DNA from: a virus
Lineage: Duplodnaviria > Caudoviricetes
Reading direction: 5' to 3' (one strand)
Virus record (IMG/VR): IMGVR_UViG_3300010398_000038
Location: 1 to 26,171 of that record
DNA length: 26,171 nucleotides
The first letter of the stretch is position 1. Each line of letters starts with the position of its first letter. Made by a program: the position numbers and the translations under genes. This document shows, one piece after another, positions 1,155-20,091 of the stretch. Below the pieces are notes generated by a model. That model searched no databases. It was not told the DNA's origin and saw nothing but the letters and a program-made list of their open reading frames with translations.

Positions 1155-1784
1155 ATGGCTCATCTCAACGGCCAAGCGCTGCAGACCTGGAACAAGGGCG
1201 ACAGCCTGACGGCTGACGCCCTGAACGGCAATTTTCAGATCATCGCCGACCGCCTCGAGCGGGTCATGGCGCAGGCGCTCTTGCCCGATGCGGCGAACAC
1301 CAATCTGCAGATGCGCATGCGCGCGATCGTCGAGCGGATCGGGCGCCTCGAAGACCTCACCGCGATGCATGCGCGGCAGCGCAACGAGCGCGAATGGGCG
1401 CCCTTAAGCCATGTCGGCGCGCTCGTCACCATGGTCAACGAGGTGAACCGCCGCTTTGAAGACGCCTGCCGGCGCATCGACGAGATGCACGCCGGCAAGG
1501 CGATCGAGCACGAGGATCTCGACCGCCGACTCCAGCGGCTCGAGCAGCAGCCGGATGCAGCACGAGAGGAGGACTTCGCCGCCCTCGCCCGTGACCACGA
1601 CCGGCTCGCTCTCAAAGAACATATGCTCCTCTCCCAGATCATCGCGCTCAGGGCAGAGGTGAGGATCCTGCGCGAATTGGCGATGGGTCACGATCGCGAG
1701 GCCAACCGCAAGGAATATGCCCCGCTAAGCACCGTCGCTCATCTCCTCGAGCGCATCATGAAGCTCGAAGCGCGCGATGGCTAA
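1155..1784 (+). CDS. Coiled-coil virion-associated protein with an internal duplication (210 aa)
   Basis: ATG at 1155; N-term 'WNKGDSLTADALNGNF' resembles tail-attachment motifs; heptad-rich. Confidence 0.65.
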   Translation: MAHLNGQALQTWNKGDSLTADALNGNFQIIADRLERVMAQALLPDAANTNLQMRMRAIVERIGRLEDLTAMHARQRNEREWAPLSHVGALVTMVNEVNRRFEDACRRIDEMHAGKAIEHEDLDRRLQRLEQQPDAAREEDFAALARDHDRLALKEHMLLSQIIALRAEVRILRELAMGHDREANRKEYAPLSTVAHLLERIMKLEARDG

Positions 1785-3240
1785 GCTCGCTCTTCACCAA
1801 GGCAGCTACAATGCGCGCTCGCCGATCGCCAACGCGCAAGTGTGCCTCAATCTCATTCCCGAGCCGAATCCCCCCGACGCGCCCTTCCCGGTGACGCACT
1901 ACCCCGGCCCGGGCCTTAAATTGTGGGGCGACCTCTCGGGCGCCTCGCCGGGCGCCACCGGCGGCGTGCGCGGTCTCTACGTCACCTCGTCCAACGCGGT
2001 CGTCGCCGTCATCGGCGTCGCGGTCTACACCCTCACCGTGGCGCAGCCGGGCCAGGCGGTCCTCGTCGGCAACATCGGTGGCCCGAGCAGCCAGCCGGTC
2101 GTCTCGATGTGCGACAACGGCACCACGCTCGTCATCGTCGACGGCAGCCCCAACGGCTGGATGGTGCCATTGGGCGCCCTCCTCACCCCGAACAGCCTTG
2201 TGCAGATCAACGACGCGGCCTTCTACGGCGCGAACCGGGTCGACTTCATCGATACCTTCCTCGTCTTCAACCAGCCCGGCACGGGGAATTTCTACACCAC
2301 GACCTCGAATGTCGTGACCCCGTTCGATCCCACTTATTTCGCGGCCAAGGAAGGCTGGAACGACCGCCTCGTGTGCTGCGCCTGCCTGCACGACAATATC
2401 TGGCTCCTCGGCAACCAGACCGTCGAAATCTGGTTCAACGCCGGCGGCGCGACCTTCCCCTTCGCGCGGATGCCGAACTCGATCCTGCAGCAGGGCTGCG
2501 CCGCGGTGTGCAGCCCGGTCGTTGCCGACAATGCGCTCTATTGGCTTAGCCAAGACCGCTGGGGGCACTCGATGATCATGCGCGGCGAGGGCTACGCCGC
2601 GCGCCGCATCAGCAACTTCGCGGTCGAGAACGAGTGGAACCAGTACCCTTACGTCACCGACTGTGTCGGCATGTCCTACCAGATCGCCGGCCACGAGATC
2701 GTCGCCTGGTATTTCCCGGCGGGCGGCGCCTGGTGGGCTTACGACGCCTCGACCCAGATGTGGCACAAGCGCACCTATGCCGGCACGACGCAGCCCTGGC
2801 TGCCGCTCACCTCGGCCTTCTTTGGCACTGTCGTCGGCGAAACGCCGTTCACCCCGGTTGTGCTGGCCGGCGACCGCAGCTCGGGGCGGATCTACGAAAT
2901 CGACCGCTCGACCTATACGGACAACGGCACCGCGATCACCCGCCAGCGCTCGTGGACGCACCTGCAGCAGGACGGCCAGCGCATCGCCTATCAGCGCTTT
3001 GCGCTGTCGATGGCGGGCAACCAATTGTCGCCCGACACGCTCGCGCTCGACTGGTCGGACGATGCCGGGTTCTCTTACGGCAGCGCGGTCAACCAGACGG
3101 CCAACAACCAGTCGAACGGCCAGTATCTGTGGCGCCGGCTCGGCTACGGGCGCGACCGCGTCTACCGCGCGACCTGGAGCGGAGCGGGCGAATTTGCCTT
3201 GAACGGGGCCTACAGCGACGGGACACCGCAGGGGACATGA
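1777..3240 (+). CDS. Packaged-DNA stabilisation / tail hub protein, P22 gp10-like
   Basis: 'LLGNQTVEIWFNAGGATFPFARMPNSILQQGCAA', 'WAYDASTQMWHKR', 'WSDDAG', 'WRRLG' motifs; 487 aa. Confidence 0.9.
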   Translation: MAKLALHQGSYNARSPIANAQVCLNLIPEPNPPDAPFPVTHYPGPGLKLWGDLSGASPGATGGVRGLYVTSSNAVVAVIGVAVYTLTVAQPGQAVLVGNIGGPSSQPVVSMCDNGTTLVIVDGSPNGWMVPLGALLTPNSLVQINDAAFYGANRVDFIDTFLVFNQPGTGNFYTTTSNVVTPFDPTYFAAKEGWNDRLVCCACLHDNIWLLGNQTVEIWFNAGGATFPFARMPNSILQQGCAAVCSPVVADNALYWLSQDRWGHSMIMRGEGYAARRISNFAVENEWNQYPYVTDCVGMSYQIAGHEIVAWYFPAGGAWWAYDASTQMWHKRTYAGTTQPWLPLTSAFFGTVVGETPFTPVVLAGDRSSGRIYEIDRSTYTDNGTAITRQRSWTHLQQDGQRIAYQRFALSMAGNQLSPDTLALDWSDDAGFSYGSAVNQTANNQSNGQYLWRRLGYGRDRVYRATWSGAGEFALNGAYSDGTPQGT

Positions 3241-3509: not shown

Positions 3510-3724
3510 GCAGCCCGCCGCCGCGCAGCGGCATCGGTGTTGTGCCGACTGCGAGCCACCGCTACGCGACGCAGGGCATGGTCAGTCCGACCGACCCGCC
3601 CTTTGTCGATCCGACAACCGGCATCATGACGCCGATCTCGTTTCGCTTTCTCCACGGTCTCTTCCAGCGTATCGCCAAAATCGAACAGGCGCTCACCAAC
3701 GCAGGGATCCCGATCCCGCCATGA
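3506..3724 (+). CDS. Small virion protein (72 aa) at the P22 gp26 position
   Basis: ATGA overlaps at both ends; 'PFVDPTTGIMTPISFRFLHGLFQRI' resembles small proteins that follow gp10-like genes. Confidence 0.6.
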   Translation: MSSPPPRSGIGVVPTASHRYATQGMVSPTDPPFVDPTTGIMTPISFRFLHGLFQRIAKIEQALTNAGIPIPP

Positions 3725-4284
3725 GATACTTCAATTCGGTCGGCACTTTCGACATGACGCCCTTGCAGCTGGCGCTGCAGGTCAACCCGCAGCTCTGGGA
3801 CGAGCACTGCTACCGCACGAGTTTCGAAGGCACGCCGTTTTTCGGCATGTCGGACATTCTGCTGCGCTACTCCCGTCCCGAGGTTCACCAGCAGACGTGC
3901 GATCCCGACGCCTGCATCGATTCGCTCGACCTGGTGAATTACCCGGCCTGGGCTCTTCTGCCGCAGTGCCACGACCTTGTCTTCAACCTGATGCGCGCCT
4001 TTCACGGCGTCGCCTTGGGGCGCGTCATCATCGCCCGCCTGCCGCCCGGCGGCGTCATCAAGCCGCACGCCGACGATTACGGAAAATACGCGCTGGCCGA
4101 GGGCGGCAAGCGCTTTCACGCCTGCATCTCGGCCGCGCCCGGCGTGCTCTTTCACTGCGGCGACGAGACGATCCAGATGCGCACGGGCGAGGTATACTGG
4201 TTCCGCCACACCGCAGTGCACAGCGCCGAGAACAACAGCGCCGACGAGCGCATTCACCTCCTCGTCGATCTGATAAGCGGCTGA
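3721..4284 (+). CDS. Aspartyl/asparaginyl beta-hydroxylase-family 2OG-Fe(II) oxygenase
   Basis: 'RVIIARLPPGGVIKPHAD' (HxD), 'GEVYWF...HSAENNSADERIHLLVD' (distal His and Arg). Confidence 0.88.
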   Translation: MRYFNSVGTFDMTPLQLALQVNPQLWDEHCYRTSFEGTPFFGMSDILLRYSRPEVHQQTCDPDACIDSLDLVNYPAWALLPQCHDLVFNLMRAFHGVALGRVIIARLPPGGVIKPHADDYGKYALAEGGKRFHACISAAPGVLFHCGDETIQMRTGEVYWFRHTAVHSAENNSADERIHLLVDLISG

Positions 4285-4289
4285 AGCCG

Positions 4290-4754
4290 ATGGAACACCT
4301 CTCGCTCCAGGTCGAGCCCTTCCGGGCCTTCTGCGAAGAGGTGCGCCCGCTCCTGCCGCAGCACTGGGAGGATCTCGCGCTCGACAAGGACAAGGTGCCG
4401 CTGGCTCCCGATTGGCAGCGCTACGCCCTGCTCGATGCGCAGGGCGCGCTCTCGGTTGTCACGGTGCGCGAGAAGGGGCGCCTCGTCGGCTATTCGATCA
4501 TGGTGGTGATGCCCGGCCTCCACTACGTGACCTGCCTCGAGGCGCGGATGGACATCTTCTGGCTGGCGCCCGAGGTGCGCGGCCGCATGGGCGGCCTCAG
4601 GCTCTTCCGTACGCACGAGCGTGAGCTCGCGCGGCGCGGTGTCAAGCGCATCTACGCCGGCTCGAAACTGCACAAGGATTCTTCGCGCCTGTTTCTCGCG
4701 ATGGGCTACAAGCCGGTCGAGCAGTGGTTTTCAAAATGGATCGCGGAGGACTGA
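4290..4754 (+). CDS. GNAT-family acetyltransferase (154 aa)
   Basis: 'GRLVGY...DIFWLAPEVRGRMGGLRL' acetyl-CoA motif A; 'LFLAMGYKPVE'. Confidence 0.85.
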   Translation: MEHLSLQVEPFRAFCEEVRPLLPQHWEDLALDKDKVPLAPDWQRYALLDAQGALSVVTVREKGRLVGYSIMVVMPGLHYVTCLEARMDIFWLAPEVRGRMGGLRLFRTHERELARRGVKRIYAGSKLHKDSSRLFLAMGYKPVEQWFSKWIAED

Positions 4755-4755
4755 G

Positions 4756-5616
4756 ATGGTAGCTGCGGCGGTCGTCGGCGGAAGTGCCATTTCCGGCATC
4801 GGTGGTCTCATCGGCTCTTCGCAGGCAGCTTCCGGCGCGCAGCAGGCGGCGGCAACCGAAGCTGCAGCGCAGGACCGCGCGACCCAGGCTCAGCTGCAGA
4901 TGCAGCAGAACGCCATCGCGCAGGAGCAATTGGGCTTCAGCGAAGCGCAGTTTTACCAGAACCCGTTCTGGGACACCGGGCTCGGCAATTATCTCGGGCT
5001 GTCGAAGGAAGTGGGTATCGGCGCCCTCGGCGCGCAGCCTTCCCTCACCGACATCACGCAGCTTCCCGGCTATTCGTTTACGTTGCAGCAAGGTCTTAAC
5101 GCGACGCAGAACGCTGCGGCGGCGCAGGGGCTGGGCGTTTCCGGCCCGGCGCTCAAAGGCGCCAGTACTTACGCCGAGAACCTCGCTAACACGTATTACA
5201 ACAACTACTTGCAGAACTATTGGACGAACCAGAACAACCGCTTCAACATGCTCTATAACCTCGCCGGTTTTGGCTCCGGCTCGGCCAATGCGCTGACCTC
5301 GGCCGCGGTCGGCGCCGGCAATACCGGGGCGCAGGCCTCGACCGCCGCGGGGGCGCAGATCGGCAGCACCATCGCCAACACCTCCGCCGGCATCGCCCAG
5401 GCGCAGCAGAGCGCGGCCAATCTGCAGGGCGCGGGAATTACCGGCGCCGGCTCCTCTCTCGGCAATGCGCTGACCTCGGCTGCGCTCCTCGGCGGCGGCT
5501 CGACACTCGGTGTCACGCAACCGACCGGCTACTCGGGATTGAATGCGGCGCAGGCAGCTGCGGTGAACAATCAGGGCTTTTATTTCAGCCCTGGCGCCTC
5601 TATCGGGACGGGGTAA
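4756..5616 (+). CDS. DNA ejection/pilot protein 1 (P22 gp7/gp20-like, 286 aa)
   Basis: GGAGG SD; G/A/Q-rich; hydrophobic N-term; 'LPGYSFTLQQG...AAAQG..SG.ALK' motif. Confidence 0.8.
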   Translation: MVAAAVVGGSAISGIGGLIGSSQAASGAQQAAATEAAAQDRATQAQLQMQQNAIAQEQLGFSEAQFYQNPFWDTGLGNYLGLSKEVGIGALGAQPSLTDITQLPGYSFTLQQGLNATQNAAAAQGLGVSGPALKGASTYAENLANTYYNNYLQNYWTNQNNRFNMLYNLAGFGSGSANALTSAAVGAGNTGAQASTAAGAQIGSTIANTSAGIAQAQQSAANLQGAGITGAGSSLGNALTSAALLGGGSTLGVTQPTGYSGLNAAQAAAVNNQGFYFSPGASIGTG

Positions 5617-5619: not shown

Positions 5620-7614
5620 ATGGGCAGCAGCATCGATGTCTCCTCGACCGGGCAGCTCGTCAACCGGCTGCTCAATCCGCCCAACCCGATGGATCAGCTC
5701 GGCAAGACGATCGAGGGCGTCAACGCGCTGAAGAGCTTTCAGGCAAACCAGGCAAGCGCGGACGCGTACCGGCAGAGCGTCGATCCGCAGACGGGCGAAG
5801 TTGATCTCGGCAAGTACAAGGCAATCATGTCGCAAGGCCCGGGTGCCTGGAATTTCGGCCCGCAGACGCAGCAGGCGGGGCAGGCGGTCGGTGCCGTGGG
5901 GCAGGGCACGACGGCAGATGTCAACGCCAAGATGGCGCAGTTGGGTGCCATGGGGCAGTTGATGTATCCGCTGCTGAAAGCCGGCGCCGACAACAATAAC
6001 CAGATCGATCCCGCTGCGGTGCAGACGCAGCTCGACCGGGCGCACGCGGCGCATCTCGTCAGCGATCAGCAATATCAGGTGTGGTCCGGGCAACTGAAAG
6101 GCATGACCCCAGGCGATGCCTATGGTTTTGTGCTCGGCGCGAATATGGGAAATCAAGAAGCTTACCGGCAACTCGGCGGTAATGTGACTGGGATCAATAC
6201 CGGGCCGCAGACTGTCTTTAAACAGACCTCTCCGCTCGGCGCGCAGCCGCCGGCCAGTTCTACGACGCAGATGGGCCTCTCGCCCGAGGGCGCCTTGAAA
6301 CTGCAGTCCTACCTCGCCGAGCCTTACGACTACACCGACAAGAATGGCGTCGAGCACAGGGGCGGCACCAAGGCCGATTTCTATGCTTCTCTTGGTATCA
6401 ACCCGTTTAAAGCCTTTACCGACGGCACAGTGCCGGCTCCGGGAAGCCCCCCCGCAATCCCGCAGCCACCTGCACCGCCGCAGGGAGGCGGGGGCGGCTC
6501 AACGCCTGGTGCTGGCAATTGGGAGGTTCAGCACAACAACTTTGCCGGAATGCGCAATCCCAATGTTCCGGCGGCCGGCGGCCCAAACACCAATCCTGCC
6601 GGCTGGCAACAATTCGCAACGCCAGAGGAAGGCATCCAGGCAATCTCGAACCAACTCGACCGCTACGCGTCTGGCGCGACGACAGGGAAACCGCTCAACA
6701 CACTCAACGGCATCATCTCAACCTGGGCTCCCCCGAGTGAAAACAATACGGCACTCCTGATCCGTCGCGCCTCGCAGATCATGGGTGTTTCGCCCGATCA
6801 GCCGCTCGACCTTGCCAACCCACAGGTCAAGGCCAAGCTCGTCGAGGCGATGATCCGCAACGAGCAAGGCGGCGCCCTGCCGCCGGCGGCGGCTGCTGCG
6901 ATTCCCAAGGTATTCCCAGCCGAGGGCGCGATATCGCAGGGAAGGGCGACGACTGGCGCGACTGAGGCAGTTCCTGCAGCGGTCGCCAAAGATAGTGGAG
7001 AACAGTTCAAAGCGGCCCGTGCGAACGCGACACAGTTCGAGGCACGGACCTCGGGACTCAGTCAGGCGCTCGGTCTCTTGCGGCAGAACGAGAACCTAAG
7101 CACCGGGCCAGGTACCCAAGACCTGCAGAACCTTCAAGGCATCGCCAATGCCTGGGGGATCGATCTGCCAAAGGCGATGAAGGACAGCAACACCGCTTTT
7201 TCCGAGATCAACAAAGACCTTGAGCGCTACTACATGACATTGCCCGGCGCGCAGCGCAGCGACCTTGCGCAGGCCGAGCAGAAGATGGCGAACCCCAGCG
7301 CGCAGACCCAACAGCGCGAAGCGTTGGATGACCTCATTACTCGCACGATCGGCCTAGAGCGGATGAACAACGCCGCTTACCTGAACTTCGAGCAGGCGCA
7401 CGGGCGGCAGGCCAGCATCTACGCACCGCAATATGCGGATGAGAGCGCGCAATACATGCAGAACCTTGATCCGGTTGGCTTTGCTTTCAATCTGATGACG
7501 CCAGCCGAGCGCACCACTTACCGAAATAGTCTCAAGGGTTCGGCACTCGCCAACTATTACAAGTCGATCAAGGAGGCGAGCCGCCTTTACAACCTACCGA
7601 TTGCGGGGGAATGA
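5620..7614 (+). CDS. DNA ejection protein 2 with an internal lysozyme-like (muralytic) domain
   Basis: 'HNNFAGMR...FATPEEGIQA...L.RY...TLNGIISTWAPPSENNT...AMIRNEQG' after a Pro/Gly linker; position in the ejection module. Confidence 0.75.
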   Translation: MGSSIDVSSTGQLVNRLLNPPNPMDQLGKTIEGVNALKSFQANQASADAYRQSVDPQTGEVDLGKYKAIMSQGPGAWNFGPQTQQAGQAVGAVGQGTTADVNAKMAQLGAMGQLMYPLLKAGADNNNQIDPAAVQTQLDRAHAAHLVSDQQYQVWSGQLKGMTPGDAYGFVLGANMGNQEAYRQLGGNVTGINTGPQTVFKQTSPLGAQPPASSTTQMGLSPEGALKLQSYLAEPYDYTDKNGVEHRGGTKADFYASLGINPFKAFTDGTVPAPGSPPAIPQPPAPPQGGGGGSTPGAGNWEVQHNNFAGMRNPNVPAAGGPNTNPAGWQQFATPEEGIQAISNQLDRYASGATTGKPLNTLNGIISTWAPPSENNTALLIRRASQIMGVSPDQPLDLANPQVKAKLVEAMIRNEQGGALPPAAAAAIPKVFPAEGAISQGRATTGATEAVPAAVAKDSGEQFKAARANATQFEARTSGLSQALGLLRQNENLSTGPGTQDLQNLQGIANAWGIDLPKAMKDSNTAFSEINKDLERYYMTLPGAQRSDLAQAEQKMANPSAQTQQREALDDLITRTIGLERMNNAAYLNFEQAHGRQASIYAPQYADESAQYMQNLDPVGFAFNLMTPAERTTYRNSLKGSALANYYKSIKEASRLYNLPIAGE

Positions 7615-7615
7615 G

Positions 7616-9298
7616 ATGGCGGATTCGCCGCCCCTGACAGACGAGGAAATGCGGGCGCTCTTTGGCGACGGCAACGCGCCGGCTGCGCCTGCCTCGTCGG
7701 CGCTGCCTGCAGCTCCATCGCCACTGACGCCGGAACAGGAGAGAACACTTTTCCCACCAGCGGCGGCAGCGCCGGCAAAGCCGCCAGGTGTGACGCCTGC
7801 AGACGCGCTGGAGGCATTCCAGGCCGGAACGCTGCAGGGCATGGGCAATGTCGCGGGCGGTATCCAGCGCCTCTTCGGCTACGATCCGAGCCTGACTGAC
7901 CGCACCAATGCGCTGCTGACGCCTGAGCAAAAGGCCGGCATGGCGGCGCATCCCTGGGCGGCGGGCGGCGGTCGCATCCTCGGCGAGACCGCGGCAACCG
8001 CGCCGGTGATGATTGTGGGCGGCGAGCTGCTGCCGACCTTTGGCGCGGCTTCGGTGCCGGCTCTGGTCGCCCGCGGCGGCCTCTATGGCGCCGCATCTGG
8101 TGCCCTAGGAAACATGCTGACCTCGGGCGGCGCACCGGATGAGAGCCTCGGACACCGCGCGCTCACTGGCGCGGAATGGGGTTTGCCGTTCGGTATGCTC
8201 GGCGGCTACGCCGAGGCTGCTACCGGTGCGGGACAGAAGGTTTCGGAAGCGACGCAGGCCGCAGGCAAGGAAATGCAGGAGGCTGGTGTCGATGTTGCGC
8301 CTGGCAATCTGCCGCGTATTGGCGGCACCAAGGCGGGCGGGCCGCCGACCGATGCACAGGCAGTTCAGATCAACAAGGCATTCGGCAACATCATCGGCCA
8401 GGACACACCTAATTTTTCCTCGGATACGCTCAATAAGGTAATCCCCGATCTCGGCAAGGATGTCGGCAATACGGTTCGCGCCGGCAAGATCGACTACGAT
8501 ATCCCGACCAGCAGCGGGCAGACTTTCGAGGATCGGCTCGCCGATATCGAGGCCAACACTGACCGCCGACAAGTCAAAAACATCATCAACAAGATTGTTC
8601 AGAAGGTTGATGCCAGCGGTGAAATTTCTGGAGCCGATCTCGGCGATCTCCTGAAGACTAATAACCCGCTCGATAGTGCGACGCGCAGCCGCGTACCGGA
8701 GATTTCCGAGCCGGCGATCGAGATCGAGCAGGCTATCCACGACGCGTTTACGCAATCGTCATCGCCCGCCATATCGCAGGCTTACAGCCTGGCGCGTGAG
8801 AAATACAAGCTTGCCTTGGCTGGCGAGCAGGCTGCCGATCCGGTCTCGGGCAACATCGATCCTTCGCGGATCATGCAGGTTTTCACGCGGATGTATCCCG
8901 ACGCGAAACGCATCGGTTCGGGTACATCGATGACTGACCAAGCGGTTAATTTTGCGCGCAATACTGCGCGCACTTTCGGCGGCACTGCGAGTGCATCACC
9001 GGTCTACAGTCACGGCGGCTGGCTGGCACCGATTGCGACAACAGCGGTCGGTGCGGCTGAAATGGCGCCGCATGTCGTCCCGTTTGCATTGCCTCAAACC
9101 CTTAGCAATCCCCTCATGGCCGGCACGATGCTCGCAGCGCCGTTCGCCATGCGCGGCATTCGGGAATTAGGGCATGCGTATCAAGGGACGCCGAGCTTTG
9201 CTAACGCTCTTCTGGCGCGCGGCCCGCAGGTCGGTGGTCCTTATCTGTCGACATTGGGGGCCGATGTGGGCGCCTCGATTGGGGATCAGCTCCGATGA
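7616..9298 (+). CDS. DNA ejection protein 3 (560 aa)
   Basis: A/G-rich with glycine-zipper-like segments ('GGLYGAASGALG'); last gene of the ejection cluster. Confidence 0.7.
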   Translation: MADSPPLTDEEMRALFGDGNAPAAPASSALPAAPSPLTPEQERTLFPPAAAAPAKPPGVTPADALEAFQAGTLQGMGNVAGGIQRLFGYDPSLTDRTNALLTPEQKAGMAAHPWAAGGGRILGETAATAPVMIVGGELLPTFGAASVPALVARGGLYGAASGALGNMLTSGGAPDESLGHRALTGAEWGLPFGMLGGYAEAATGAGQKVSEATQAAGKEMQEAGVDVAPGNLPRIGGTKAGGPPTDAQAVQINKAFGNIIGQDTPNFSSDTLNKVIPDLGKDVGNTVRAGKIDYDIPTSSGQTFEDRLADIEANTDRRQVKNIINKIVQKVDASGEISGADLGDLLKTNNPLDSATRSRVPEISEPAIEIEQAIHDAFTQSSSPAISQAYSLAREKYKLALAGEQAADPVSGNIDPSRIMQVFTRMYPDAKRIGSGTSMTDQAVNFARNTARTFGGTASASPVYSHGGWLAPIATTAVGAAEMAPHVVPFALPQTLSNPLMAGTMLAAPFAMRGIRELGHAYQGTPSFANALLARGPQVGGPYLSTLGADVGASIGDQLR

Positions 9299-9531
9299 AG
9301 CCTTCGGCGCAGCAATCGTACAATCCCCAGGCTGATGTTGACGCCCAAAAAGGCAATGATCCCGCCAATAATAACCTGGCCGGCTATCTCGGGATTGACG
9401 GCGCTGTTGAACCAAGGAAGGGCCGCGCCATAGATCATGAACAGCGCTGGAAACCACACACCTTCCGCGCCGTACATCGAGCCCATCAGCACGAACCAAA
9501 GAACCAGTCCGGCAATCCAGATAACAATCAT
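9286..9531 (-). CDS. Array ORF F: small integral membrane protein (about 3 TM, 81 aa)
   Basis: Highly hydrophobic with a basic C-tail; starts 3 nt (GCG) after the previous stop. Confidence 0.65.
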   Translation of the reverse strand: MIVIWIAGLVLWFVLMGSMYGAEGVWFPALFMIYGAALPWFNSAVNPEIAGQVIIGGIIAFLGVNISLGIVRLLRRRLHRS

Positions 9532-9534
9532 CGC

Positions 9535-9765
9535 TTAGATCCACTTAAAGCCGTGAGCCATCGTGGCGAGCATCCCGCCAAAGCCTGCGAGCATGATGGT
9601 CAGCACGATGTAGAATTGCCGGTCCTGGCGCGTAATAAGCAGCCGAAAGTCTTCGCGCAGATCCTTGCGCAGGCCGCCGATTTCGCTGCGAAGTTCTCGA
9701 ATATCCTCGCGGAAATCCTGACGCAGACCACGCAGTTCGCTCACCAGGTCGTTTGTGTCCGCCAT
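9535..9765 (-). CDS. Array ORF E: coiled coil plus C-terminal TM (76 aa, ends MAHGFKWI)
   Basis: Internal repeat LRGLRQDFREDIR/IGGLRKDLREDFR; hydrophobic tail; AGGAG SD within the linker. Confidence 0.8.
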   Translation of the reverse strand: MADTNDLVSELRGLRQDFREDIRELRSEIGGLRKDLREDFRLLITRQDRQFYIVLTIMLAGFGGMLATMAHGFKWI

Positions 9766-9777
9766 CGCTCAGCGCTC

Positions 9778-9882
9778 CTAACCCAATGCGCCGACTTTGG
9801 CGGCAACCCGCAGCAGCAGGAACAGCGCGAGCGTGCCTTCCGCGATAATCGCACCGAAACATATCATTCCGAATGTGTGCAT
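9778..9882 (-). CDS. Array ORF D: 34-aa single-TM peptide MHTFGMICFGAIIAEGTLALFLLLRVAAKVGALG
   Basis: Translated by hand (below the ORF-track cutoff); bounded by two exact linker copies. Confidence 0.65.
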   Translation of the reverse strand: MHTFGMICFGAIIAEGTLALFLLLRVAAKVGALG

Positions 9883-9885
9883 CGC

Positions 9886-10134
9886 TCAGCGCTCCTCGAG
9901 CAATGTGCGGATTGCCCGCAGGTCTTCGCGCATCTCGCGGGTGTCCTCGCGAACCTCGATGCGGAAGCGGTCGAACTGGCTGCGCAGCGCCCGCAATTCG
10001 ACAGCGATGTTGCTGATCGACGTGTCGTGCCGCTCGAGCATCGATATCATCACCGTGCGGTCATCGCGCATGTCAGCCAGCTCGCGCTGAATTTCACGCA
10101 ACAGCCGCTCCGTCGCGCTCACTGTGTCGCTCAT
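9886..10134 (-). CDS. Array ORF C: soluble coiled-coil protein (82 aa)
   Basis: Heptad pattern; ends LEER within the linker. Confidence 0.8.
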   Translation of the reverse strand: MSDTVSATERLLREIQRELADMRDDRTVMISMLERHDTSISNIAVELRALRSQFDRFRIEVREDTREMREDLRAIRTLLEER

Positions 10135-10137
10135 CGC

Positions 10138-10368
10138 TCAACCTCGGCTGGCGTTGATCGCCGCGGCAATCGCCGCCACCTGGGCGCCGACCTCGGCCCG
10201 CTGCGCGCGGAACTCCTCGGCCAGGTCATGGCGCAGTCCGGTGAACCCGCTGTCGATCTTTACCTCAAGTCGGCGGATTTCGCTGAACAGCAACACAAAG
10301 CCGCCGATGACAAACGCGGCGAAGATGCCAAAGCTGGCGGTGAAGACGGTTACAAGGTCGGCGCTCAT
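10138..10368 (-). CDS. Array ORF B: N-terminal TM plus coiled coil (76 aa)
   Basis: Hydrophobic 'VFTASFGIFAAFVIGGFVLLF' followed by heptads; GAGGAG SD within the linker. Confidence 0.8.
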   Translation of the reverse strand: MSADLVTVFTASFGIFAAFVIGGFVLLFSEIRRLEVKIDSGFTGLRHDLAEEFRAQRAEVGAQVAAIAAAINASRG

Positions 10369-10371
10369 CGC

Positions 10372-10614
10372 TCAGCGCTCCTCCTCGACCAGATCGAGAC
10401 GGCGCTCGATGCGCCCAAGGCGCAATTCGATGCGGTCCATCCGCACCGAGAGCATCGCAAAATCATCGTGCAGATTGGCGACTTCGCGCTCAAGGCGCCC
10501 GGTGCGCTGCTTCAAATCAGCAATATCGGTTCTGATCTCGGCAAGCTGCGTGTCGACGCGGTTAAACCGCTCTCGCAGGTAATCGAGGACATTGATAGGA
10601 TTTTCGGTAGCCAT
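10372..10614 (-). CDS. Array ORF A: soluble coiled-coil protein (80 aa)
   Basis: 'MDRIELRLGRIERRLDLVEEER' heptads; AAAGGGA upstream; first gene of the array. Confidence 0.8.
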   Translation of the reverse strand: MATENPINVLDYLRERFNRVDTQLAEIRTDIADLKQRTGRLEREVANLHDDFAMLSVRMDRIELRLGRIERRLDLVEEER

Positions 10615-10684
10615 AGCAGAGCTCGTCCCTTTGCTTGGTCAGGAGCGGGAGCGGTGTTTGCGCACCCTCCCGTCTCCGCATTTT
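10607..10684 (+). ncRNA. Candidate cis-antisense RNA, SymR/ptaRNA1-like, covering the start codon and leader of array ORF A
   Basis: Extended -10 TG-A-TAGGAT at 10593-10601; begins GTAGCCAT (anti-start codon); GGTCAG, then hairpin 10642-10677 with a GGTGTTTGCGCACC apex, then TTTT. Confidence 0.55.
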
Positions 10685-10708
10685 AGCGGAGTCGCCGATG
10701 CCTGACGA
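10680..10708 (-). promoter_or_regulatory. Candidate sigma70 promoter for the small-ORF array
   Basis: Minus strand TCGTCA (10708-10703), 17 bp, TAAAAT (10685-10680); the -10 is flanked by inverted repeat CTCCGC/GCGGAG. Confidence 0.5.
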
Positions 10709-10880
10709 GATAATAACGATACCCCTTCCGGCGAGCGATTGGCCGACGATCCAGGCCGGGCTGCTCGAGCTGCCGGGAAAATTCGGCATCCCCGTCATCA
10801 ACCGGCTGAACCAGGCGCTCGCCGAGGCGCAGAAACCAGCGGAAGACACCGTAATGCCGATCCGCGGGAGCAAAGGCTGA
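10698..10880 (+). CDS. Small hypothetical late protein (60 aa, MPDEIITIPL...)
   Basis: GGAG SD 6 nt upstream; 'LLELPGKFGIPVINRL' resembles small tail-associated phage proteins. Confidence 0.65.
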   Translation: MPDEIITIPLPASDWPTIQAGLLELPGKFGIPVINRLNQALAEAQKPAEDTVMPIRGSKG

Positions 10881-10882: not shown

Positions 10883-11752
10883 CTAATCGGGGCGCAGAAA
10901 CACGCCTCTCATTTTGTCGACATACGCGAGCCACGCAGCGTGCGCTTCTTCCGGCGTGTCATAGGTGCCGATGTAAACAAGCTTTCGTTTCCCAAGAGAA
11001 GCGCGCGCCATGAAACGACCTGGACTGCGCTGACTTGGGACAACGCCGCGTGGCAGCTTACCCGTATGGCGACGATTCCACTGGTTCTGTTGGTTGGTTG
11101 TCTCTCGCAGGTTTTCCCAACGGTTATCTGCGGGATTGCCGTTTTTGTGATCGATAGCTTCCGTTGGCCATTTGCCGGTCTGCATGACCCAAATCAGACG
11201 ATGTGCGGTAAATTGGCCGCTATTTACGAGAAGGCGAATATGGCCATCGCGGTTAGGCAGTCCCGCCGCTCTGCCGGCCCATCGCGTGTTCCAGACGCGT
11301 TGCGCTTTCTCGTTCTTAAAATGGTGCAATGGCCGGAATTTCCAAATCAGTATTCCAACGGTTGGCTCATATGCGAAGCATTCATGCAAATACGCAGCGC
11401 TAGGCCGCGGCAATTTATTTCTCGGATTTGGATTGTCTTGAGGACGTTGCAGGTTGTCCCATCGGTTATCCGATATGTCTCCGTTCTTGTGTTCAACGAC
11501 CTTTGCCCGCGTGCCGGTTTGCATAATCCAAATCAAACTATGCCCAGTGAAGATGTGTCCATTTACGTGCACCCGGCTTTTACCATCGCGTTGAAGCAGA
11601 CCGACGGTTTTGCCGGCCCATCGCTTATTCCAACAGCGCTGGGTTGCCGTATCCTTAAAATGATCCAGCGGACGCGCTTTCCATTTGAGAACGCCAGTCT
11701 CGTGATCATACGAAAAACACTCACACAAGTAAGCTTGTGAAGGGGGCAACAT
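10883..11752 (-). CDS. HNH homing endonuclease with two tandem HNH modules and a C-terminal AP2-like domain
   Basis: 'EHKNGDISDNRWDNL' and 'DHKNGNPADNRWENL'; 'YIGTYDTPEEAHAAW' AP2 motif; lower GC than the flanks. Confidence 0.88.
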   Translation of the reverse strand: MLPPSQAYLCECFSYDHETGVLKWKARPLDHFKDTATQRCWNKRWAGKTVGLLQRDGKSRVHVNGHIFTGHSLIWIMQTGTRAKVVEHKNGDISDNRWDNLQRPQDNPNPRNKLPRPSAAYLHECFAYEPTVGILIWKFRPLHHFKNEKAQRVWNTRWAGRAAGLPNRDGHIRLLVNSGQFTAHRLIWVMQTGKWPTEAIDHKNGNPADNRWENLRETTNQQNQWNRRHTGKLPRGVVPSQRSPGRFMARASLGKRKLVYIGTYDTPEEAHAAWLAYVDKMRGVFLRPD

Positions 11753-13832
11753 GGGCTCACCGATACCAACACAGACGCCGCAAGGCGCTGTTGTTGCTCT
11801 AGGAATTCCAAATTCTCAGGATTATCCCAGACTTGTTCTGACAAGTCCATACTTTGAAGGGGTGCCGCTCGCCGAATTGATCGAGCCGAGCGTCATCGAG
11901 GCGGTGAACAACGTGCTGCCATCGCTCGTCCCGCCCTATGTCGACCAGGCGGCGCAAGCCGCAGTACAGCAATTAGCCGTGCTGCTCACCGGCTCGACGA
12001 TGACGGGGCCGCTCTTCCTCAATCCCTTGATGCCTACGGCTGATGCTCAAGCTGCAACTAAAGCGTATGTTGATACGATGCTTGCAACCGCCGGTATCCC
12101 CGAGGTGCCCCCGGTTCCATCCGGCCAGGTCTGGGGCCGCGAGACCGGGCAGTGGGTGCCGATCAGCCAGACCGGCGGCACCTTCCTGCCGCTGACCGGC
12201 GGCACGATGCAGGGCAACATCGCGATGTCCGGCAACACCATCACCAACATGGCGGCGGTGCCGGCGATGCCCAACGGCGCTGCACCCGCGCAGTGGGTGC
12301 TGAACCAGATCGCCAGCGTCTCGCTCTATCAAGGCACCTGGAACGCCGACACCAACGTACCCGACCTGACGCAGCTCAGCACTCACGTCAACGGCTACAC
12401 ATGGTTCGCACTGACGACGAGCCCCTCGGGCGTCGTCATCGGCGCCGCGATCCCGGGCCTCCAGGGCACCACCGTCTTCAATGGCGATACGATTATCTAC
12501 AGCACGGTCGCCGGGGCCTTTCAGGCGATCCATGCCGGCGGTCTGACCCTGGCCGAAGCCGATGGGCGCTATGTCCAGCTCGCCGGGTCGCAAATGTCCG
12601 GTGCGCTGCTCTTGAACGCCAACGCCAGCCAACCGCTGCAGGCCGTCACACTTCAGCAGCTCGACGCTGCGGTCGCCAATACCGTCACCCCCGACGCCCC
12701 GGCTGACGGCCAGGCGTATCTGCGGGTCGGGGTCGGCGCTCCCGCTGCCCGCTGGGTGCCCGGTCTGCCGCTCGCCGGCGGCATCCTCACCGGGTCGCTG
12801 ACGCTCGCGGCAAATGCCGCAACCGCGCTGCAGGCGGTGCCGCTGCAGCAGATGAACAGCGCCATCACCGCAGCGACCGCAGGGTTCCTGCCGCTTGCCG
12901 GCGGCGCGATGACCGGACTCTTCACCCTCTCGGGCAATGCCACGGCAAACCTCAACCCGGTACCGCTGCAGCAGGTGACGGGAATGCTGGCGACCTATGC
13001 GCCCTTGGCAAATCCCGCCTTTAGCGGCGTGCCCACGGTGCCGCTTGCCGCTCCTGGCACCAATACCGGGCAAGCTGCTTCGACCGCCTTTGTGCAGGCC
13101 GCGACGGGGAACTATCTCCCGCTTTCGGGTGGGACGCTGACCGGGGCGCTTGTCCTGCCAAACGGCACCTCTGCCGCGCCCGCGCTCAATTTTGCCGGCA
13201 ATGGCGGGTTCTACGTCAGCTCCCCGAACCTCGTTGCTTTCACCCAATCGCTCAATGTCGCTGGGTCGGTCAGCGCCACCGCGGGGGTAAACGGAGGCCC
13301 GGGCACCATTGGCGGCGTTATTCTCAACACAAACGTCACCCTGCCGGCGAACGGCGCGCTGATTTTTCACACAAGTCAGATTTCCTCGATCATTTTCGAT
13401 ACGAACTATTCGCTGCAATATCGCAACACCGACGGCACCTGGCATTTCATCTCGCCGACCGGCAATGCGATGTCGCTCGACTTTGCCGGCAACATGACAG
13501 TCAACAGCCTGACCCAGACAAGCGATGAGCGGACAAAAGGCAACATCGCCGCTTATGCGCCGGGAGTAAGCATCATCGGCCAATTAATGCCCAAGACATT
13601 CACTTACAACAGCGACACCGCCTCGCCTCAGGTGATGCACCTGGGGTTCATGGCGCAGGACGTGCAGCCGGTGTTGCCCGAGGCCGTGTCGGGCAGTCTC
13701 GACACGATGCTCGGGCTGGACACGACACCTGTCATTGCGGCCCTGGTCAATGCTGTAAAGCAACTGATCAGCCGCATTCAGGCGCTTGAATCGAACGCCA
13801 ACATCACTCCCAGCGCGGCAGAAACAGCATGA
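11751..13832 (+). CDS. Tail fibre/spike with a C-terminal peptidase S74 intramolecular chaperone
   Basis: Repeated 'LPL.GG.(M/L)TG.L.L' shaft motifs, 'ATKAYVD', 'ASTAFV'; 'SDERTK...LGFMAQDVQPVLPEAV' plus a terminal coiled coil. Confidence 0.88.
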   Translation: MGSPIPTQTPQGAVVALGIPNSQDYPRLVLTSPYFEGVPLAELIEPSVIEAVNNVLPSLVPPYVDQAAQAAVQQLAVLLTGSTMTGPLFLNPLMPTADAQAATKAYVDTMLATAGIPEVPPVPSGQVWGRETGQWVPISQTGGTFLPLTGGTMQGNIAMSGNTITNMAAVPAMPNGAAPAQWVLNQIASVSLYQGTWNADTNVPDLTQLSTHVNGYTWFALTTSPSGVVIGAAIPGLQGTTVFNGDTIIYSTVAGAFQAIHAGGLTLAEADGRYVQLAGSQMSGALLLNANASQPLQAVTLQQLDAAVANTVTPDAPADGQAYLRVGVGAPAARWVPGLPLAGGILTGSLTLAANAATALQAVPLQQMNSAITAATAGFLPLAGGAMTGLFTLSGNATANLNPVPLQQVTGMLATYAPLANPAFSGVPTVPLAAPGTNTGQAASTAFVQAATGNYLPLSGGTLTGALVLPNGTSAAPALNFAGNGGFYVSSPNLVAFTQSLNVAGSVSATAGVNGGPGTIGGVILNTNVTLPANGALIFHTSQISSIIFDTNYSLQYRNTDGTWHFISPTGNAMSLDFAGNMTVNSLTQTSDERTKGNIAAYAPGVSIIGQLMPKTFTYNSDTASPQVMHLGFMAQDVQPVLPEAVSGSLDTMLGLDTTPVIAALVNAVKQLISRIQALESNANITPSAAETA

Positions 13833-14811: not shown

Positions 14812-15624
14812 CTATTTAATGCGTTTGGTGGTGAAGAGTTGCGGAATGAACCATCGCTCTTCCGGCCAACCGAGCCGGATGCGGGCATGAACTACGCTAT
14901 ACGCGACCCCGCTTCTTTCCGCTGCTTCTGCCAACGCCATGCGGGTACCTTGATACGTGACAAACCGACTATCGCTCTTGTTTCTCGCTTGCTCGGTCAT
15001 GGTTGCCCATCGGCAATTTTCCGGGCCGTAGCCCTTGTCGTTATCGATGCGCTCAAGTGCCGAGTGTGGCGGTCTCCTGCCCATATCGGCAAGGAAGTTT
15101 TCAAACGCGAGCCATTGCTCGCAGACCTTGATGCCGCGGCCACCATAGCGCGCAAAGCTATTGTTATTTGGATTGCCACAGCGTGCCAGCATTGCGCGCC
15201 ACACATCGTATTCGACCATGTGCTTACCGCCGCGCGTCGCGCCGTGCGTCGTTTTGATTTTGGCCGTAACCTCAGCTCGCCTGCATCCGCAACTTTGCGT
15301 ATGGCCGGCAGACAATGTCCAGCTCACCACATTGCGTTCCGTGCCACATTCGCACTTGCACCTCCAAAATGTACCACCCTTGCCGAGGTGCGATTTCTCA
15401 ATAACGCGCCAACGACCAAAAATTTGACCCGTAAGATCTTCGCTTTTCAGGCACCCGCAGCTTCGTACGCGACCTTGACGCAACCTGTCGCCGCGTGTGG
15501 TGCATTGATTGCCGCATTGGCATTGGCAAAGCCAAAACGAACGCTCGCTTCCTGGCTTGTAGACCCGATCAAGTACGGTCAAGCGTCCGAACGTTTGACC
15601 GGAAATATCTATGGAGCGATCCAT
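14812..15624 (-). CDS. HNH-type homing endonuclease with duplicated CxCxCG...SCGC N-terminal repeats
   Basis: 'YGGRGIKVC..W..FENFLADMG', 'ERIDNDKGYGPENCRWAT..EQARN'; start chosen at MDRSIDISGQ (alternative 15648). Confidence 0.85.
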   Translation of the reverse strand: MDRSIDISGQTFGRLTVLDRVYKPGSERSFWLCQCQCGNQCTTRGDRLRQGRVRSCGCLKSEDLTGQIFGRWRVIEKSHLGKGGTFWRCKCECGTERNVVSWTLSAGHTQSCGCRRAEVTAKIKTTHGATRGGKHMVEYDVWRAMLARCGNPNNNSFARYGGRGIKVCEQWLAFENFLADMGRRPPHSALERIDNDKGYGPENCRWATMTEQARNKSDSRFVTYQGTRMALAEAAERSGVAYSVVHARIRLGWPEERWFIPQLFTTKRIK

Positions 15625-16162
15625 GCCCGACACTGTGTTTGACACCATAATGTCGATTGTTATAGGTCATGAGGGCGGCTATGTCGATAACGCGTCCGAC
15701 CCCGGGGGAAGGACAAAATACGGTATTTCGCAAAGGTCCTATCCTGACGTGGATATCGCCCAACTGAGCCTTGAGGGGGCGAAGGCGATCTACAAGCGGG
15801 ATTATTTTGATCGCCTCTCGCTCGATGTAGCAGACCCCGGGCTCGCCCTCGTGGCGTTCGATGCCGCCGTCAATAATGGTGTAGGTCAAGCTGCGCGCTG
15901 GCTGCAGGCGGCGCTTGGGGTTGCTGTGGATGGCGTTATCGGCAATCAGACAAAGGCGGCTCTTGCGGCTTGCACTGGCGATAAGGCGCAAGAAGTGCTC
16001 ACCGCGATGCATGCCGCGCGCATCTACATGATGGCAAATTTGAGCACCTGGCAGACTTTCGGTCGGGGATGGTCGAAGCGTCTCGCGCAGATCCCGTACC
16101 AAGCTGCAGGCCTGACCAACAACGACACGCCGACGGCGACCGACCAGCCGCCAGCGGGATAA
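15623..16162 (+). CDS. Endolysin, glycoside hydrolase family 108, with a peptidoglycan-binding region
   Basis: 'HEGGYVD...DPGGRTKYGIS', 'FDAAVNNG', 'VDGVIGNQT', 'FGRGW..R'; GGAG SD. Confidence 0.92.
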   Translation: MPDTVFDTIMSIVIGHEGGYVDNASDPGGRTKYGISQRSYPDVDIAQLSLEGAKAIYKRDYFDRLSLDVADPGLALVAFDAAVNNGVGQAARWLQAALGVAVDGVIGNQTKAALAACTGDKAQEVLTAMHAARIYMMANLSTWQTFGRGWSKRLAQIPYQAAGLTNNDTPTATDQPPAG

Positions 16163-16414: not shown

Positions 16415-16635
16415 TGGCGATCGGAACCCGTTACCGCGACATGCGCGACACCACCGACCAGCTCGACGCCAAGCTGCGGCGCGGCGTCGAAATGGTTCAG
16501 GAGCAGTATGACGATAGATTCCCCTGCCGCGGCCAGGCCAATGTGCGCCGGACGAACGAGTATCTGCCGCTCGACATGGTCTCCCGGCAAAACCGCCTCA
16601 CGCCCTATCGGAAATACCCGAGCGAGAAGGGTTGA
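16414..16635 (+). CDS. Hypothetical protein (73 aa)
   Basis: TGATG overlap, AAGGAG SD. Confidence 0.65.
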   Translation: MAIGTRYRDMRDTTDQLDAKLRRGVEMVQEQYDDRFPCRGQANVRRTNEYLPLDMVSRQNRLTPYRKYPSEKG

Positions 16636-17065
16636 GAGACGCAGCAGACCATCGTGCGTAGGTGAATGCCTTGGTGATTACCTGCGCGATCTTGACGCGC
16701 TCTAACCGCTCCCTTTCCGCGTCTTGCTTTGTTAGCCATGAAGCAAGCACATCGTCAGGGCTAGGCGGTTTTGGTTTGAAAGAGATACGCGGAAAGTTTT
16801 CGCGGAACTCTATCTTGCCCAGCAGTAGTAGGAGCATCGCCCTTGTGCTCGGCGTATCGTGAAACCATTCGCCCGTCGCACGGTGCTGTGCCAGGGCAGC
16901 AAGAATACGACGTTCCTCGCTGCCCCGTCCTTTGAAATAGCCGATCAGGATGACGGCGCATCGCCGTTCATTGCACAACGCCCGACGCCTCACGCGGGGA
17001 TGCTTTGAGCGACCGATTTTGATAAATCCATCGGCCGATTGCATCACGTAAAGATGGTCTTTCAT
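16598..17065 (-). CDS. GIY-YIG/T5orf172 (MUG113-like) nuclease-domain protein
   Basis: 'LYVMQ...IKIGRS..P..R...L...E...HRATGEWF'; start reassigned to ATG 17065. Confidence 0.78.
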   Translation of the reverse strand: MKDHLYVMQSADGFIKIGRSKHPRVRRRALCNERRCAVILIGYFKGRGSEERRILAALAQHRATGEWFHDTPSTRAMLLLLLGKIEFRENFPRISFKPKPPSPDDVLASWLTKQDAERERLERVKIAQVITKAFTYARWSAASLNPSRSGISDRA

Positions 17066-17100
17066 CGCACTCGCGCGCCAAGGGATATAGCGGGAACACT

Positions 17101-17285
17101 TCCCCACATTCTCCCCACGTTTTCCCCACAACGAGGGGCATTTTGAGGCCTGTTGTTCCTGTTTCTGTCTTTGTAAGTCATTGAAGTTATTGATTATAGG
17201 TGGCCCGGAGATGCCCAATTACGGGTGTGTCTTTCATGCTCTGTCAATAGCTTACGAAGCTCTCCCCACGATTTTAGCGTGGGGA
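17101..17285. other. Putative attP: arm-type repeats, IHF-like sites and a core
   Basis: TCCCCAC at 17101, 17112 and 17123 (11-bp period) and 17263, inverted at 17279-17285; TAAGTCATTGA and TCAATAGCTTA IHF-like sites; AT-rich; at the 3' end of int. Confidence 0.75.
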
Positions 17286-18250
17286 AGCTTGACGCGGTTG
17301 ATCGCGCCGCGAACCATCTCGACATCGGCTTTCTGATATCTGAGCGACATCATCGGAGTCGTATGACCCAAGGTCTGCATGATCGCCTTCAAGGGTTCGC
17401 GGTTGAGAGCCATCATCGTTCCCAGCGTGTGCCTCGCCATATGGGCGGTGAAATAGATGCCGGTCCTCGCGTTTAGCTTTTGCAGCGCGCGATAGAACTG
17501 GGAATAGTTGGTGTAGGGAAACACCTTGCCGTCGCCCTTGGGTCCTAAGAGGGCGATGAAGTCGTCGTGGATCGCGAAGGTTTCCCATCGCTCGCCCTTG
17601 GCGTTGAACAGCCTGAAGGTGAACCGCTTGAGGTCGATCTGATCCCAGGTCAGATCCAAGGTCTTGCGGATGCGCGTGCCGTGCAGGAAGAGAAATTTCA
17701 ACAGCCGGTACATTTGGGGATCGGCGGCGGAAATCACCTCGGCGGCCGTGTCGGCATCGAGTGCGCGCGGTTGCGGCTCCGGTTCCTTGAATGTCTTGAC
17801 CCGTATCCAGTGGTCCCACAGTTCAGCGTGATAGGCATAGTGCAGCACGCTGATGATCGGGCGCATGATATTGCGGTTGCGCGACTGTGGTTCTAGCCGG
17901 GCGCCGATCTCGTTGGCGACGGCATGAATGTCGGTTCCCTTGATCTCCCGGAAATTGCGCTGGCCGATGACCGCAATCACCCTCTCAAGCCGTCGCCGAT
18001 CCTCGCGAGTGGGGTTGCGGAACTCGATATAGCGTCGCGCCAGTTGCTCAAAGGTTATGATTCCTCGGGAGCCGATGGCCTGCGCGACGGCTCGTTGGAT
18101 GTCCGCTTCCAGTTCTTTCTTACGTCGCTCAGCAGCCTTTTGGTCTGTCGTGTCCGTGCTGATCTCGTAAAGCTGCCCGGCAATGCGACCACGTGCGAGG
18201 AAGAACTTATTGCCCTTGCGTTGACCCGGAGCGATGAGGTGGAGCGGCAT
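17252..18250 (-). CDS. int: Tyrosine integrase
   Basis: Catalytic R (HGTRI), HxxR (HMARHT), LGH and Y (SLRY). Confidence 0.93.
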   Translation of the reverse strand: MPLHLIAPGQRKGNKFFLARGRIAGQLYEISTDTTDQKAAERRKKELEADIQRAVAQAIGSRGIITFEQLARRYIEFRNPTREDRRRLERVIAVIGQRNFREIKGTDIHAVANEIGARLEPQSRNRNIMRPIISVLHYAYHAELWDHWIRVKTFKEPEPQPRALDADTAAEVISAADPQMYRLLKFLFLHGTRIRKTLDLTWDQIDLKRFTFRLFNAKGERWETFAIHDDFIALLGPKGDGKVFPYTNYSQFYRALQKLNARTGIYFTAHMARHTLGTMMALNREPLKAIMQTLGHTTPMMSLRYQKADVEMVRGAINRVKLPHAKIVGRAS

Positions 18251-19933: not shown

Positions 19934-20091
19934 TCCTCAGGGTTATGGTTGGCGTGGAGGCGCACCACCTGGACACGGCGCCGCTCCAGTTCGCGCAGCA
20001 CCTCCTCGGCGATCGCCTGGCTCATCTCGCGCACGCGGCGCTCGACCTCGCGCTCGATCAGCCAGCGCAAGAGCTCGCCTTCGTCGGTCAT
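19930..20091 (-). CDS. Small helical hypothetical protein (53 aa, MTDEGELL...)
   Basis: ATGA overlaps at both ends. Confidence 0.55.
   Translation of the reverse strand: MTDEGELLRWLIEREVERRVREMSQAIAEEVLRELERRRVQVVRLHANHNPEE

Follow-up and report, generated by a model that had tools for sequence, protein, structure and literature searches.

A tandem row of mini-genes with a repeated stop-GCG-start joint, a probable site of cassette exchange, in a P22-like temperate phage

Recombination of phage genomes at short conserved sequences between unrelated modules, the linker or boundary-sequence model, reportedly goes back to Susskind & Botstein 1978 and Clark et al. 2001, within the modular theory of how lambdoid phages evolve. 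Whether mosaicism is guided by such linkers or results from random joints that are then sorted by selection has long been debated, as passages of PMC3233612 set out. The window considered here, a 26,171-nucleotide (nt) stretch of virus DNA (Caudoviricetes; IMG/VR record IMGVR_UViG_3300010398_000038, positions 1 to 26,171), bears on that debate: on its minus strand, at 9286-10614, it carries an array of six small open reading frames (ORFs), lettered A to F, whose junctions carry a repeated stop-GCG-start sequence. Our explanation, to which we give a probability of roughly 55% as a whole, is that the array is an operon whose cassettes are shuffled at the joint between them and whose products act at the host inner membrane, likely in exclusion or defence.

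Like the systems described by the linker model (PMC3233612, in the passages on boundary sequences), the array has a short conserved sequence between non-homologous modules at which the breakpoints of related phages fall, and it belongs to a temperate, P22-like setting with a Rad52-like (ERF) recombinase. It differs in having a fixed 9-nt stop-GCG-start joint with 17-27-nt end-tags lying within the coding end of the upstream gene, and in being confined to one row of mini-genes in which up to five tandem copies keep a single reading frame. The PeSL cassettes of T4-type phages, as presented in passages of Arbiol et al. 2010 (PMC2839356), are likewise small ORFans in a hypervariable region, flanked by repeats at which they are gained, lost or replaced and each of which carries the expression signals of the adjoining gene. 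A PeSL, however, spans ~100 bp and holds a promoter and a terminator, making each gene its own transcription unit, whereas the joint described here measures 9-27 nt and carries translation signals inside what is predicted to be one operon; with spacers of 3 or 12 nt, there is neither a sigma-70 promoter nor a ~100-bp terminator stem-loop at each repeat. The start-associated sequences (SAS) of cluster K mycobacteriophages (Pope et al. 2011, PMC3203893) resemble the joint in placing an AGGAG-containing repeat just 5' of unrelated ATG starts and in sometimes taking in the upstream stop. SAS have a different 13-bp sequence, present in 11-19 copies over the non-structural half of the genome, and the passages of that paper that concern them suggest that they help to initiate translation, without proposing any part in shuffling, whereas the repeat here is restricted to one locus and marks points of exchange.

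The closest match in position is the sieA/immI interval of P22 (BK000583; Leavitt et al. 2024, PMC10883804, in the passages on this interval), which shares with the array its place, its orientation opposite to the late genes, a promoter of its own and membrane products whose content varies among P22-like phages. The P22 order is gene 16 (+), sieA (-), gene 9 (+) (BK000583), and the array sits between the position homologues of genes 16 and 9 on the opposite strand, so that the comparison with P22 drawn in an earlier note on this DNA was right as to place and strand. In contrast, SieA is one protein of 162-164 amino acids (aa) with three transmembrane (TM) helices and a conserved motif (PMC10883804, same passages), whereas here there are 3-7 unrelated mini-proteins. 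The array is not an integron, because its 3-12-nt spacers are too short to hold attC sites (judged by length, without a formal attC model) and no IntI adjoins it; the nearest tyrosine recombinase gene (17252-18250, minus strand) is 6.6 kb distant, and its matches are to families of phage integrases. With boundary sequences, PeSL and SAS described (passages of PMC3233612, PMC2839356 and PMC3203893), the principle of a linker array is in print already, and the earlier note's term "undescribed system" was too strong. What sets this array apart is a translational stop-start joint of 9-27 nt that is tandem, frame-keeping and confined to a single locus.

The six minus-strand ORFs lie head to tail in the order, and with the lengths, that the note had given (80, 76, 82, 34, 76 and 81 aa for A to F). 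The spacers between cassettes measure 3 nt, in one case 12 nt, and since each is a multiple of three, all six ORFs stand in a single reading frame. The 9-mer T[GA]AGCGATG occurs six times in the window, at the five array junctions and once at 11619-11627, against a chance expectation of 0.65 (0 of 100 shuffles reached six). The longer 17-mer AGGAGCGCTGAGCGATG is present, as had been reported, in three identical copies, all at junctions (chance mean 0.28; 0 of 100 shuffles reached three). At the A>B junction (10366-10382) it combines a Shine-Dalgarno (SD) motif AGGAG, a TGA stop, GCG and ATG; further copies lie at C>D (9880-9896) and D>E (9763-9779), and the 9-mer marks the remaining junctions as TGAGCGATG at B>C (10132-10140) and TAAGCGATG at E>F (9529-9537), all on the minus strand. 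At the junctions, an SD-like AGGAG or GAGG sits within the 3' end of the upstream gene. Cassette D, however, stops at a TAG 12 nt 5' of E's ATG, the TGA of the adjacent 17-mer being a second in-frame stop; because D's own TAG precedes it, this copy is a non-coding relic. The claim of five TRA-GCG-ATG junctions therefore stands for the 9-mer, which is found at all five, but true stop-GCG-start junctions number four of the five.

Relatives of this locus were found chiefly among metagenome contigs. A blastn search with the array found nothing among 50,697 phage records. Searching with the C family yielded 39 metagenome-contig loci (one of them the window's own contig) and seven loci in viral contigs; a scan of genome contigs with C gave only three distant homologues, in alphaproteobacterial metagenome-assembled genomes (MAGs) and with no array. 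The 17-mer itself, for which the note had advised a search, matched nine viral contigs, two of which (L003 and L007) hold related arrays. Ten non-redundant arrays, on related contigs of soil phages, were kept, after removal of L024 (the same as the window), L028 (the same as L029), L031 (the same as L030) and L010 and L015 (on the same contig as L032). They comprise 3-7 cassettes in differing sets and orders at a common locus: A-B-C-D-E-F in the window, A2-G-B-C-D-E-F in L023, C-D-E-H in L025 (5' end cut), O-B2-C-I in L026, E2-B-C-J in L027, A-B2-C-K in L029, L-M-C-J-F2 in L030, E-C-N in L032 (5' end cut), L-B2-I' in L003 and L-B2-D-E-P-I in L007, where P (2126-2290, minus strand) is a 54-aa fragment of an HNH-type endonuclease lying between linker variants. 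Where the flanks are present, a fibre gene lies divergently upstream and an ejection-protein gene convergently downstream. A small TM protein closes each of the ten arrays, and content differs even between phages whose C genes are 88-100% identical. Different sets and orders joined by the same linker, rather than six ORFs in fixed order, are what the modular cassette system proposed in the note would lead one to expect.

A census of the 36 junctions in the ten arrays places the exact T[GA]AGCGATG at 25, where it joins 16 different module pairs; three more are one- or two-base variants of the form stop-NNN-ATG (TGAGCTATG twice, TGATTGATG once), six are ATGA overlaps and two read TGAAATG. In the aligned junctions the upstream ends are of three kinds, ...GAGGAGCGC-TGA (A, C and the relic that follows D), ...GGCTTTAAGTGGATC-TRA (E, G, E2 and M) and ...GCCAGCCGAGGT-TGA (B and B2), and these end types combine with ten unrelated downstream starts, similarity ceasing just past the ATG. 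Breakpoints follow the same pattern: 136 of the 262 internal ends of blastn high-scoring segment pairs (HSPs) between arrays fall at most 12 nt from a junction ATG, whereas in 2000 trials with randomly placed positions the count averaged 18.0 and never exceeded 33. Outside the arrays the 9-mer is scarce, with one copy in the window and one in 43.2 kb of three related contigs. Contigs from four further DNA runs on soil, aligned to the window at a similarity of at least 85%, reveal rearrangements at the same points, each joint occurring in two runs. The joint 9889>10142 connects the B>C linker precisely with the C>D linker, so that C is lost; 10126>9528 leads from the start of C back to the end of E, giving the order E then C; and 9780>10145 attaches the linker that precedes E to the 3' end of B. 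Gain, loss and reordering at linkers are visible in these contigs. Because the census, the breakpoints, the specificity of the 9-mer and the soil-run joints agree, we consider the linker an address for module exchange, and linker-addressed shuffling of a real operon is very probable.

The array also appears to have its own control signals. A consensus scan found a promoter-like site, TCGTCA-17-TAAAAT (10680-10708, minus strand; -10 box at 10685-10680), ~70 nt before A, the sole such site upstream of the array on the array's strand, in a region where the count of promoter-like sites is not above chance. In seven aligned upstream regions the -10 box reads TATAAT in the six relatives and TAAAAT in the window. 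Between this box and A, RNAalifold predicts a leader stem-loop (10642-10677, minus strand) of 12 pairs, 6 of which keep pairing through changes on both sides in an alignment given eight sequences, that of L003 being misaligned. Because of the -10 box and the hairpin, we assign the array a control region separate from the opposing late operon; the start of a divergent 60-aa ORF also falls within it. As a side observation, three different sequence versions of the leader hairpin occur among the relatives, and all retain pairing.

Protein features were taken from a hydropathy scan, with C also modelled by AlphaFold2 from a 23-sequence alignment, and selection was gauged by codon-based comparison with diverged copies in relatives (ratio of nonsynonymous to synonymous change, dN/dS). 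The scan agrees with the placement of TM segments in the note. A (10372-10614) is a soluble coiled coil that ends in EEER and has no TM segment; B (10138-10368; dN/dS 0.16-0.55) has an N-terminal TM segment and a coiled coil; C (9886-10134; dN/dS 0.09-0.19) lacks a TM segment and is predicted to form a single long helix; D (9778-9882) is hydrophobic; E (9535-9765; dN/dS 0.24-0.40) has a coiled coil and a C-terminal TM segment and ends in MAHGFKWI; and F (9286-9531; dN/dS 0.41 against F2 of L030) is hydrophobic with a basic tail, RLLRRRLHRS, all on the minus strand. For F the scan gives two TM windows, while about three hydrophobic stretches can be made out by eye. With cassette J of the relatives at a dN/dS of 0.21, B, C, E, F and J are under purifying selection; the copies of A and D among array-bearing relatives are all identical or near-identical, hence no ratio was obtained for them. 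The cassettes, called mutually dissimilar in the note, are so overall, but weak similarity of the coiled-coil type links pairs such as A-E, C-E and B-E.

A and C are two widespread, highly conserved one-helix families without annotation. The A family has 565 representatives at E<=1e-3, mostly of ~75 aa and aligned end to end. A itself scores 22.1 bits on XhlA (PF10779; cut-off 34.7) and 19.1 bits on NF048001 (cut-off 50), and thirty relatives of A gave only weak matches, to DUF7310 in 22 (best E 1.6e-7) and to NF048001 in 21 (best E 2.7e-5). NF048001 is the NCBIfam entry "GTA head formation protein, RCAP_rcc01685 family", and the consensus of the A family ends in RL.RIERRLDL.EA. Among the cassettes, conservation is widest for C, whose family comprises 101 protein clusters (E<=0.001; 105 candidates) and contains the invariant motif ELADMRDDR...RALRSQFDR. 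The AlphaFold2 model of C is one helix over residues 2-81 (mean predicted local distance difference test score, pLDDT, 95.4), and a helix of that length would have to be paired with other helices. A comparison of the A and C family profiles with hhalign gave a probability of 53%.

The other cassettes are less widely distributed. E has seven clusters at E<=0.001 among 13 candidates and F two among 14, one of them F itself, and both are therefore confined to this phage group; a search for relatives of F in viral contigs found none. D shares 60% identity over 25 aa with the C-terminal TM segment of a 71-aa coiled-coil ORF that adjoins a C homologue (L052), so it is probably the remnant TM tail of a longer, tail-anchored coiled-coil protein. 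Among relatives, E varies between 69 and 110 aa and B between 76 and 87 aa through insertions and deletions of coiled-coil repeat units, with the TM end and the C-terminal 30 aa (in B, the C-terminal 30 aa) invariant; the repeat-unit changes look like tuning of a spacer's length.

These features suggest how the locus may work. The row of six genes is predicted to form a single, translationally coupled operon, and related phages very probably exchanged, lost and reordered cassettes at the conserved 9-nt joint. The joint, together with its end-tags, may serve both as the unit of translational coupling and as short homology for crossovers, possibly made by the phage's own annealing protein; as the note had stated, the phage does encode ERF (20088-21512, minus strand; PF04404 1.6e-12, phrog_2324 1.1e-25). 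Passages of PMC3945230 report that Erf-type and other Rad52-like recombinases act on short, diverged homologies and that an Erf recombinase equals Red-beta in handling diverged sequences. The positive-inside rule would put the coiled coils of B and E on the cytoplasmic side, each tied to the membrane by a TM helix, N-terminal in B and C-terminal in E, with A and C as possible soluble partners. The products would then work at the host inner membrane, most likely in superinfection exclusion or defence expressed from the prophage, a function suggested by the sieA-like place and strand, the sigma-70-like promoter, the membrane products and the hypervariability among close relatives; judged on these features, exclusion or defence is a tentative assignment, somewhat short of an even chance. 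Since all cassettes share one frame, loss of a stop or readthrough would fuse neighbours, and a C+D fusion would resemble the coiled-coil and TM build of E. If the mini-proteins do block DNA entry, they would represent a new, combinatorial kind of superinfection exclusion; in any case the locus holds unexplored mini-proteins, A and C included, where P22-like phages keep exclusion genes.

Several observations count against this explanation, some concerning the joint and others, taken up in the next paragraph, the function. The HSP ends and junction counts are not independent events, many junctions being orthologous; some recurrent breakpoints fall inside B; the relatives come mostly from one family of soil metagenomes; and among the public runs that carry the stretch no RNA run is listed. 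Furthermore, the exact joint spans 9 nt, and 17-27 nt if its end-tags are counted, lengths at or below the 23-27-bp minimal pairing segment given for Red-beta in passages of PMC3945230, and breakpoints at gene boundaries are expected from selection alone, according to passages of PMC3233612. A linker conserved purely as a coupling signal, with shuffling by random illegitimate recombination and selection keeping those joints that fall at boundaries (the second model of PMC3233612, as set out in those passages), would account for these last points and for the other forms of coupling, ATGA and TGAAATG, that coexist at 8 of 36 junctions. We nevertheless regard selection for coupling as not the whole story, and this account as rather unlikely, because the GCG spacer, on which no coding constraint acts, is the same at 25 of 36 junctions and across 16 unrelated pairs while synonymous sites in the adjoining C gene have diverged (synonymous divergence, dS, 0.3-0.6); because copies of the 17-mer survive outside coding sequence, following D's TAG and, in L027 and L003, following B; and because the same phages use junctions other than the 9-mer elsewhere. 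The precise loss of C from one linker to the next, which contigs of two runs display, also argues for exchange guided by the linker. With one tandem 9-nt joint serving at least 16 module pairs in close relatives, scarce elsewhere and accompanied by ERF in the same genome, the locus is an unusually clean natural test bed for guided versus selected mosaicism.

As to function, P22 SieA, which keeps the DNA of superinfecting phages from entering, found no counterpart among the 24 cassette proteins or in the window (BLASTP and TBLASTN; best E 0.033), where its motif FxRYPxEAxxFNK is absent. In Pfam and NCBIfam, all 24 cassette proteins stay below the curated cut-offs (PADLOC was not searched), and their matches in PHROGs are weak and to families of unknown or doubtful function. 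C homologues also occur singly near integrase and helix-turn-helix (HTH) genes of unrelated phages, and at three loci directly 3' of peptide-chain release-factor genes (RF-1 domain, E 4e-19 to 2e-44); since C occurs elsewhere and A is very widespread, the soluble cassettes are not specific to this locus. Neither the window nor three related contigs (G001-G003, L066-L069), which run from portal to integrase, contain a recognised endolysin, holin or spanin, which makes a role in lysis control conceivable: small proteins with several TM segments such as F and J, with their hydrophobic stretches and basic tail, would be holins or antiholins, and B, E and L would be releasin-, spanin- or XhlA-like helpers. 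The place of the P22 lysis genes, between those for replication and terminase, is here only ~670 nt long (24939-25611), with one 110-aa ORF lacking a family match, and there are two weak leads, matches of A and its relatives to XhlA below cut-off (13 of 30 members) and the nearness of B to a DUF2730 "releasin" cluster (Atlas score 0.79). Lysis is nonetheless unlikely, as the array has no endolysin beside it, lies opposite to the late-gene strand with a sigma-70-like -10 box of its own, and varies in content among phages with 88-100% identical C genes, variation not usually seen in an essential lysis module; matches to holin and spanin families all have an E of 0.03 or more (the best lysis-annotated PHROG has E 0.035), and lysis genes may have been overlooked among unmatched ORFs elsewhere. 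Alternatively, D, F and similar peptides could be membrane toxins regulated by the coiled coils as antitoxins, in an addiction or abortive-infection module rather than a block to entry. Their shortness and hydrophobicity (34-91 aa), the small TM protein at the end of 10 of 10 arrays and the HTH-type genes that neighbour C homologues in other phages are compatible with such a module, but Pfam, PHROGs and NCBIfam show no similarity to toxin-antitoxin families (PADLOC was not searched), neither an antisense RNA nor an antitoxin fold was identified, and D resembles a truncated remnant; toxins are thus very unlikely. Within the explanation we prefer, shuffled cassettes acting in exclusion or defence, a bolder form is conceivable and, in our view, doubtful: an integrase-free site of phage warfare that generates diversity, in which the 9-nt address, ERF and double-strand breaks from the neighbouring HNH homing endonucleases would deal new sets of membrane-anchored coiled-coil and peptide modules, each set with its own exclusion specificity against the ejection-protein conduits of rivals, and stop loss or readthrough would fuse in-frame modules into new proteins.

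The gene order of the window (G+C of the contig, 64%) is that of a P22-like temperate podovirus. On the plus strand, genes for a head-tail adaptor (350-1150) and a head-closure protein (1777-3240) are followed by three genes in the positions of ejection proteins, at 4621-5616, 5620-7614 (with a transglycosylase domain) and 7601-9298, the last of which, of 565 aa, is convergent with the array, its 3' end overlapped by 13 nt of F. Homologues of this gene sit 3' of the arrays in L023, L027, L030 and L031; a search for relatives of its product in viral contigs found none. The array lies between this gene and the tail fibre gene (11751-13832, plus strand). Divergent from it is the conserved 60-aa ORF (10698-10880, plus strand), which directly precedes the fibre gene in relatives and for which a family search gave no match. 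Between this ORF and the fibre gene, the window has an HNH endonuclease gene (10883-11752, minus strand; PF13392 9.6e-26, phrog_99 3.3e-64) that has a homologue in none of nine related loci searched and is therefore an insertion, one that separates the fibre gene from the control region of the array. A second HNH endonuclease gene and a MUG113/T5orf172-like gene (14812-15648 and 16598-17218, minus strand) also lie around the fibre gene, and breaks made by such homing endonucleases might boost recombination at the array locus. The tyrosine integrase gene is followed in gene order by an excisionase-like gene, also on the minus strand, and the right part of the window holds a repressor-like gene, a replication gene (24180-24938) and the start of the large terminase gene (25612 onward).

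Opposite the array, a 463-aa plus-strand ORF (9295-10686) was rejected as a gene: its G+C content is highest at codon position 1, mirroring the G+C content at third codon positions (GC3) of the minus strand, and it is an antisense shadow that arises because the cassettes share one frame. An alternative genetic code was likewise rejected, since TGA, TAA and TAG all serve as stops and the GC3 pattern is normal.

Searches of the protein Atlas placed C and B only in unnamed clusters, the DUF2730 and DUF6674 rows falling below a useful score. Some C homologues have cellular contexts (loci L043, L044, L049 and L061), and one stands beside an aminotransferase gene on a 195-kb contig of an alphaproteobacterial MAG. 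The C family is therefore not just a phage cassette but also a conserved small protein of cells.

The contig begins within the virion block (1-346) and stops within the large terminase gene (25612-26171), and from these end points it lacks roughly the terminase-portal-scaffold-capsid segment that is seen in related contigs. Inside the virion block lies a gene resembling aspartyl/asparaginyl beta-hydroxylases (cupin; 3721-4284, plus strand; PF05118 2.5e-14), and in related contigs the corresponding part of the block is occupied by an acetyltransferase-like gene.

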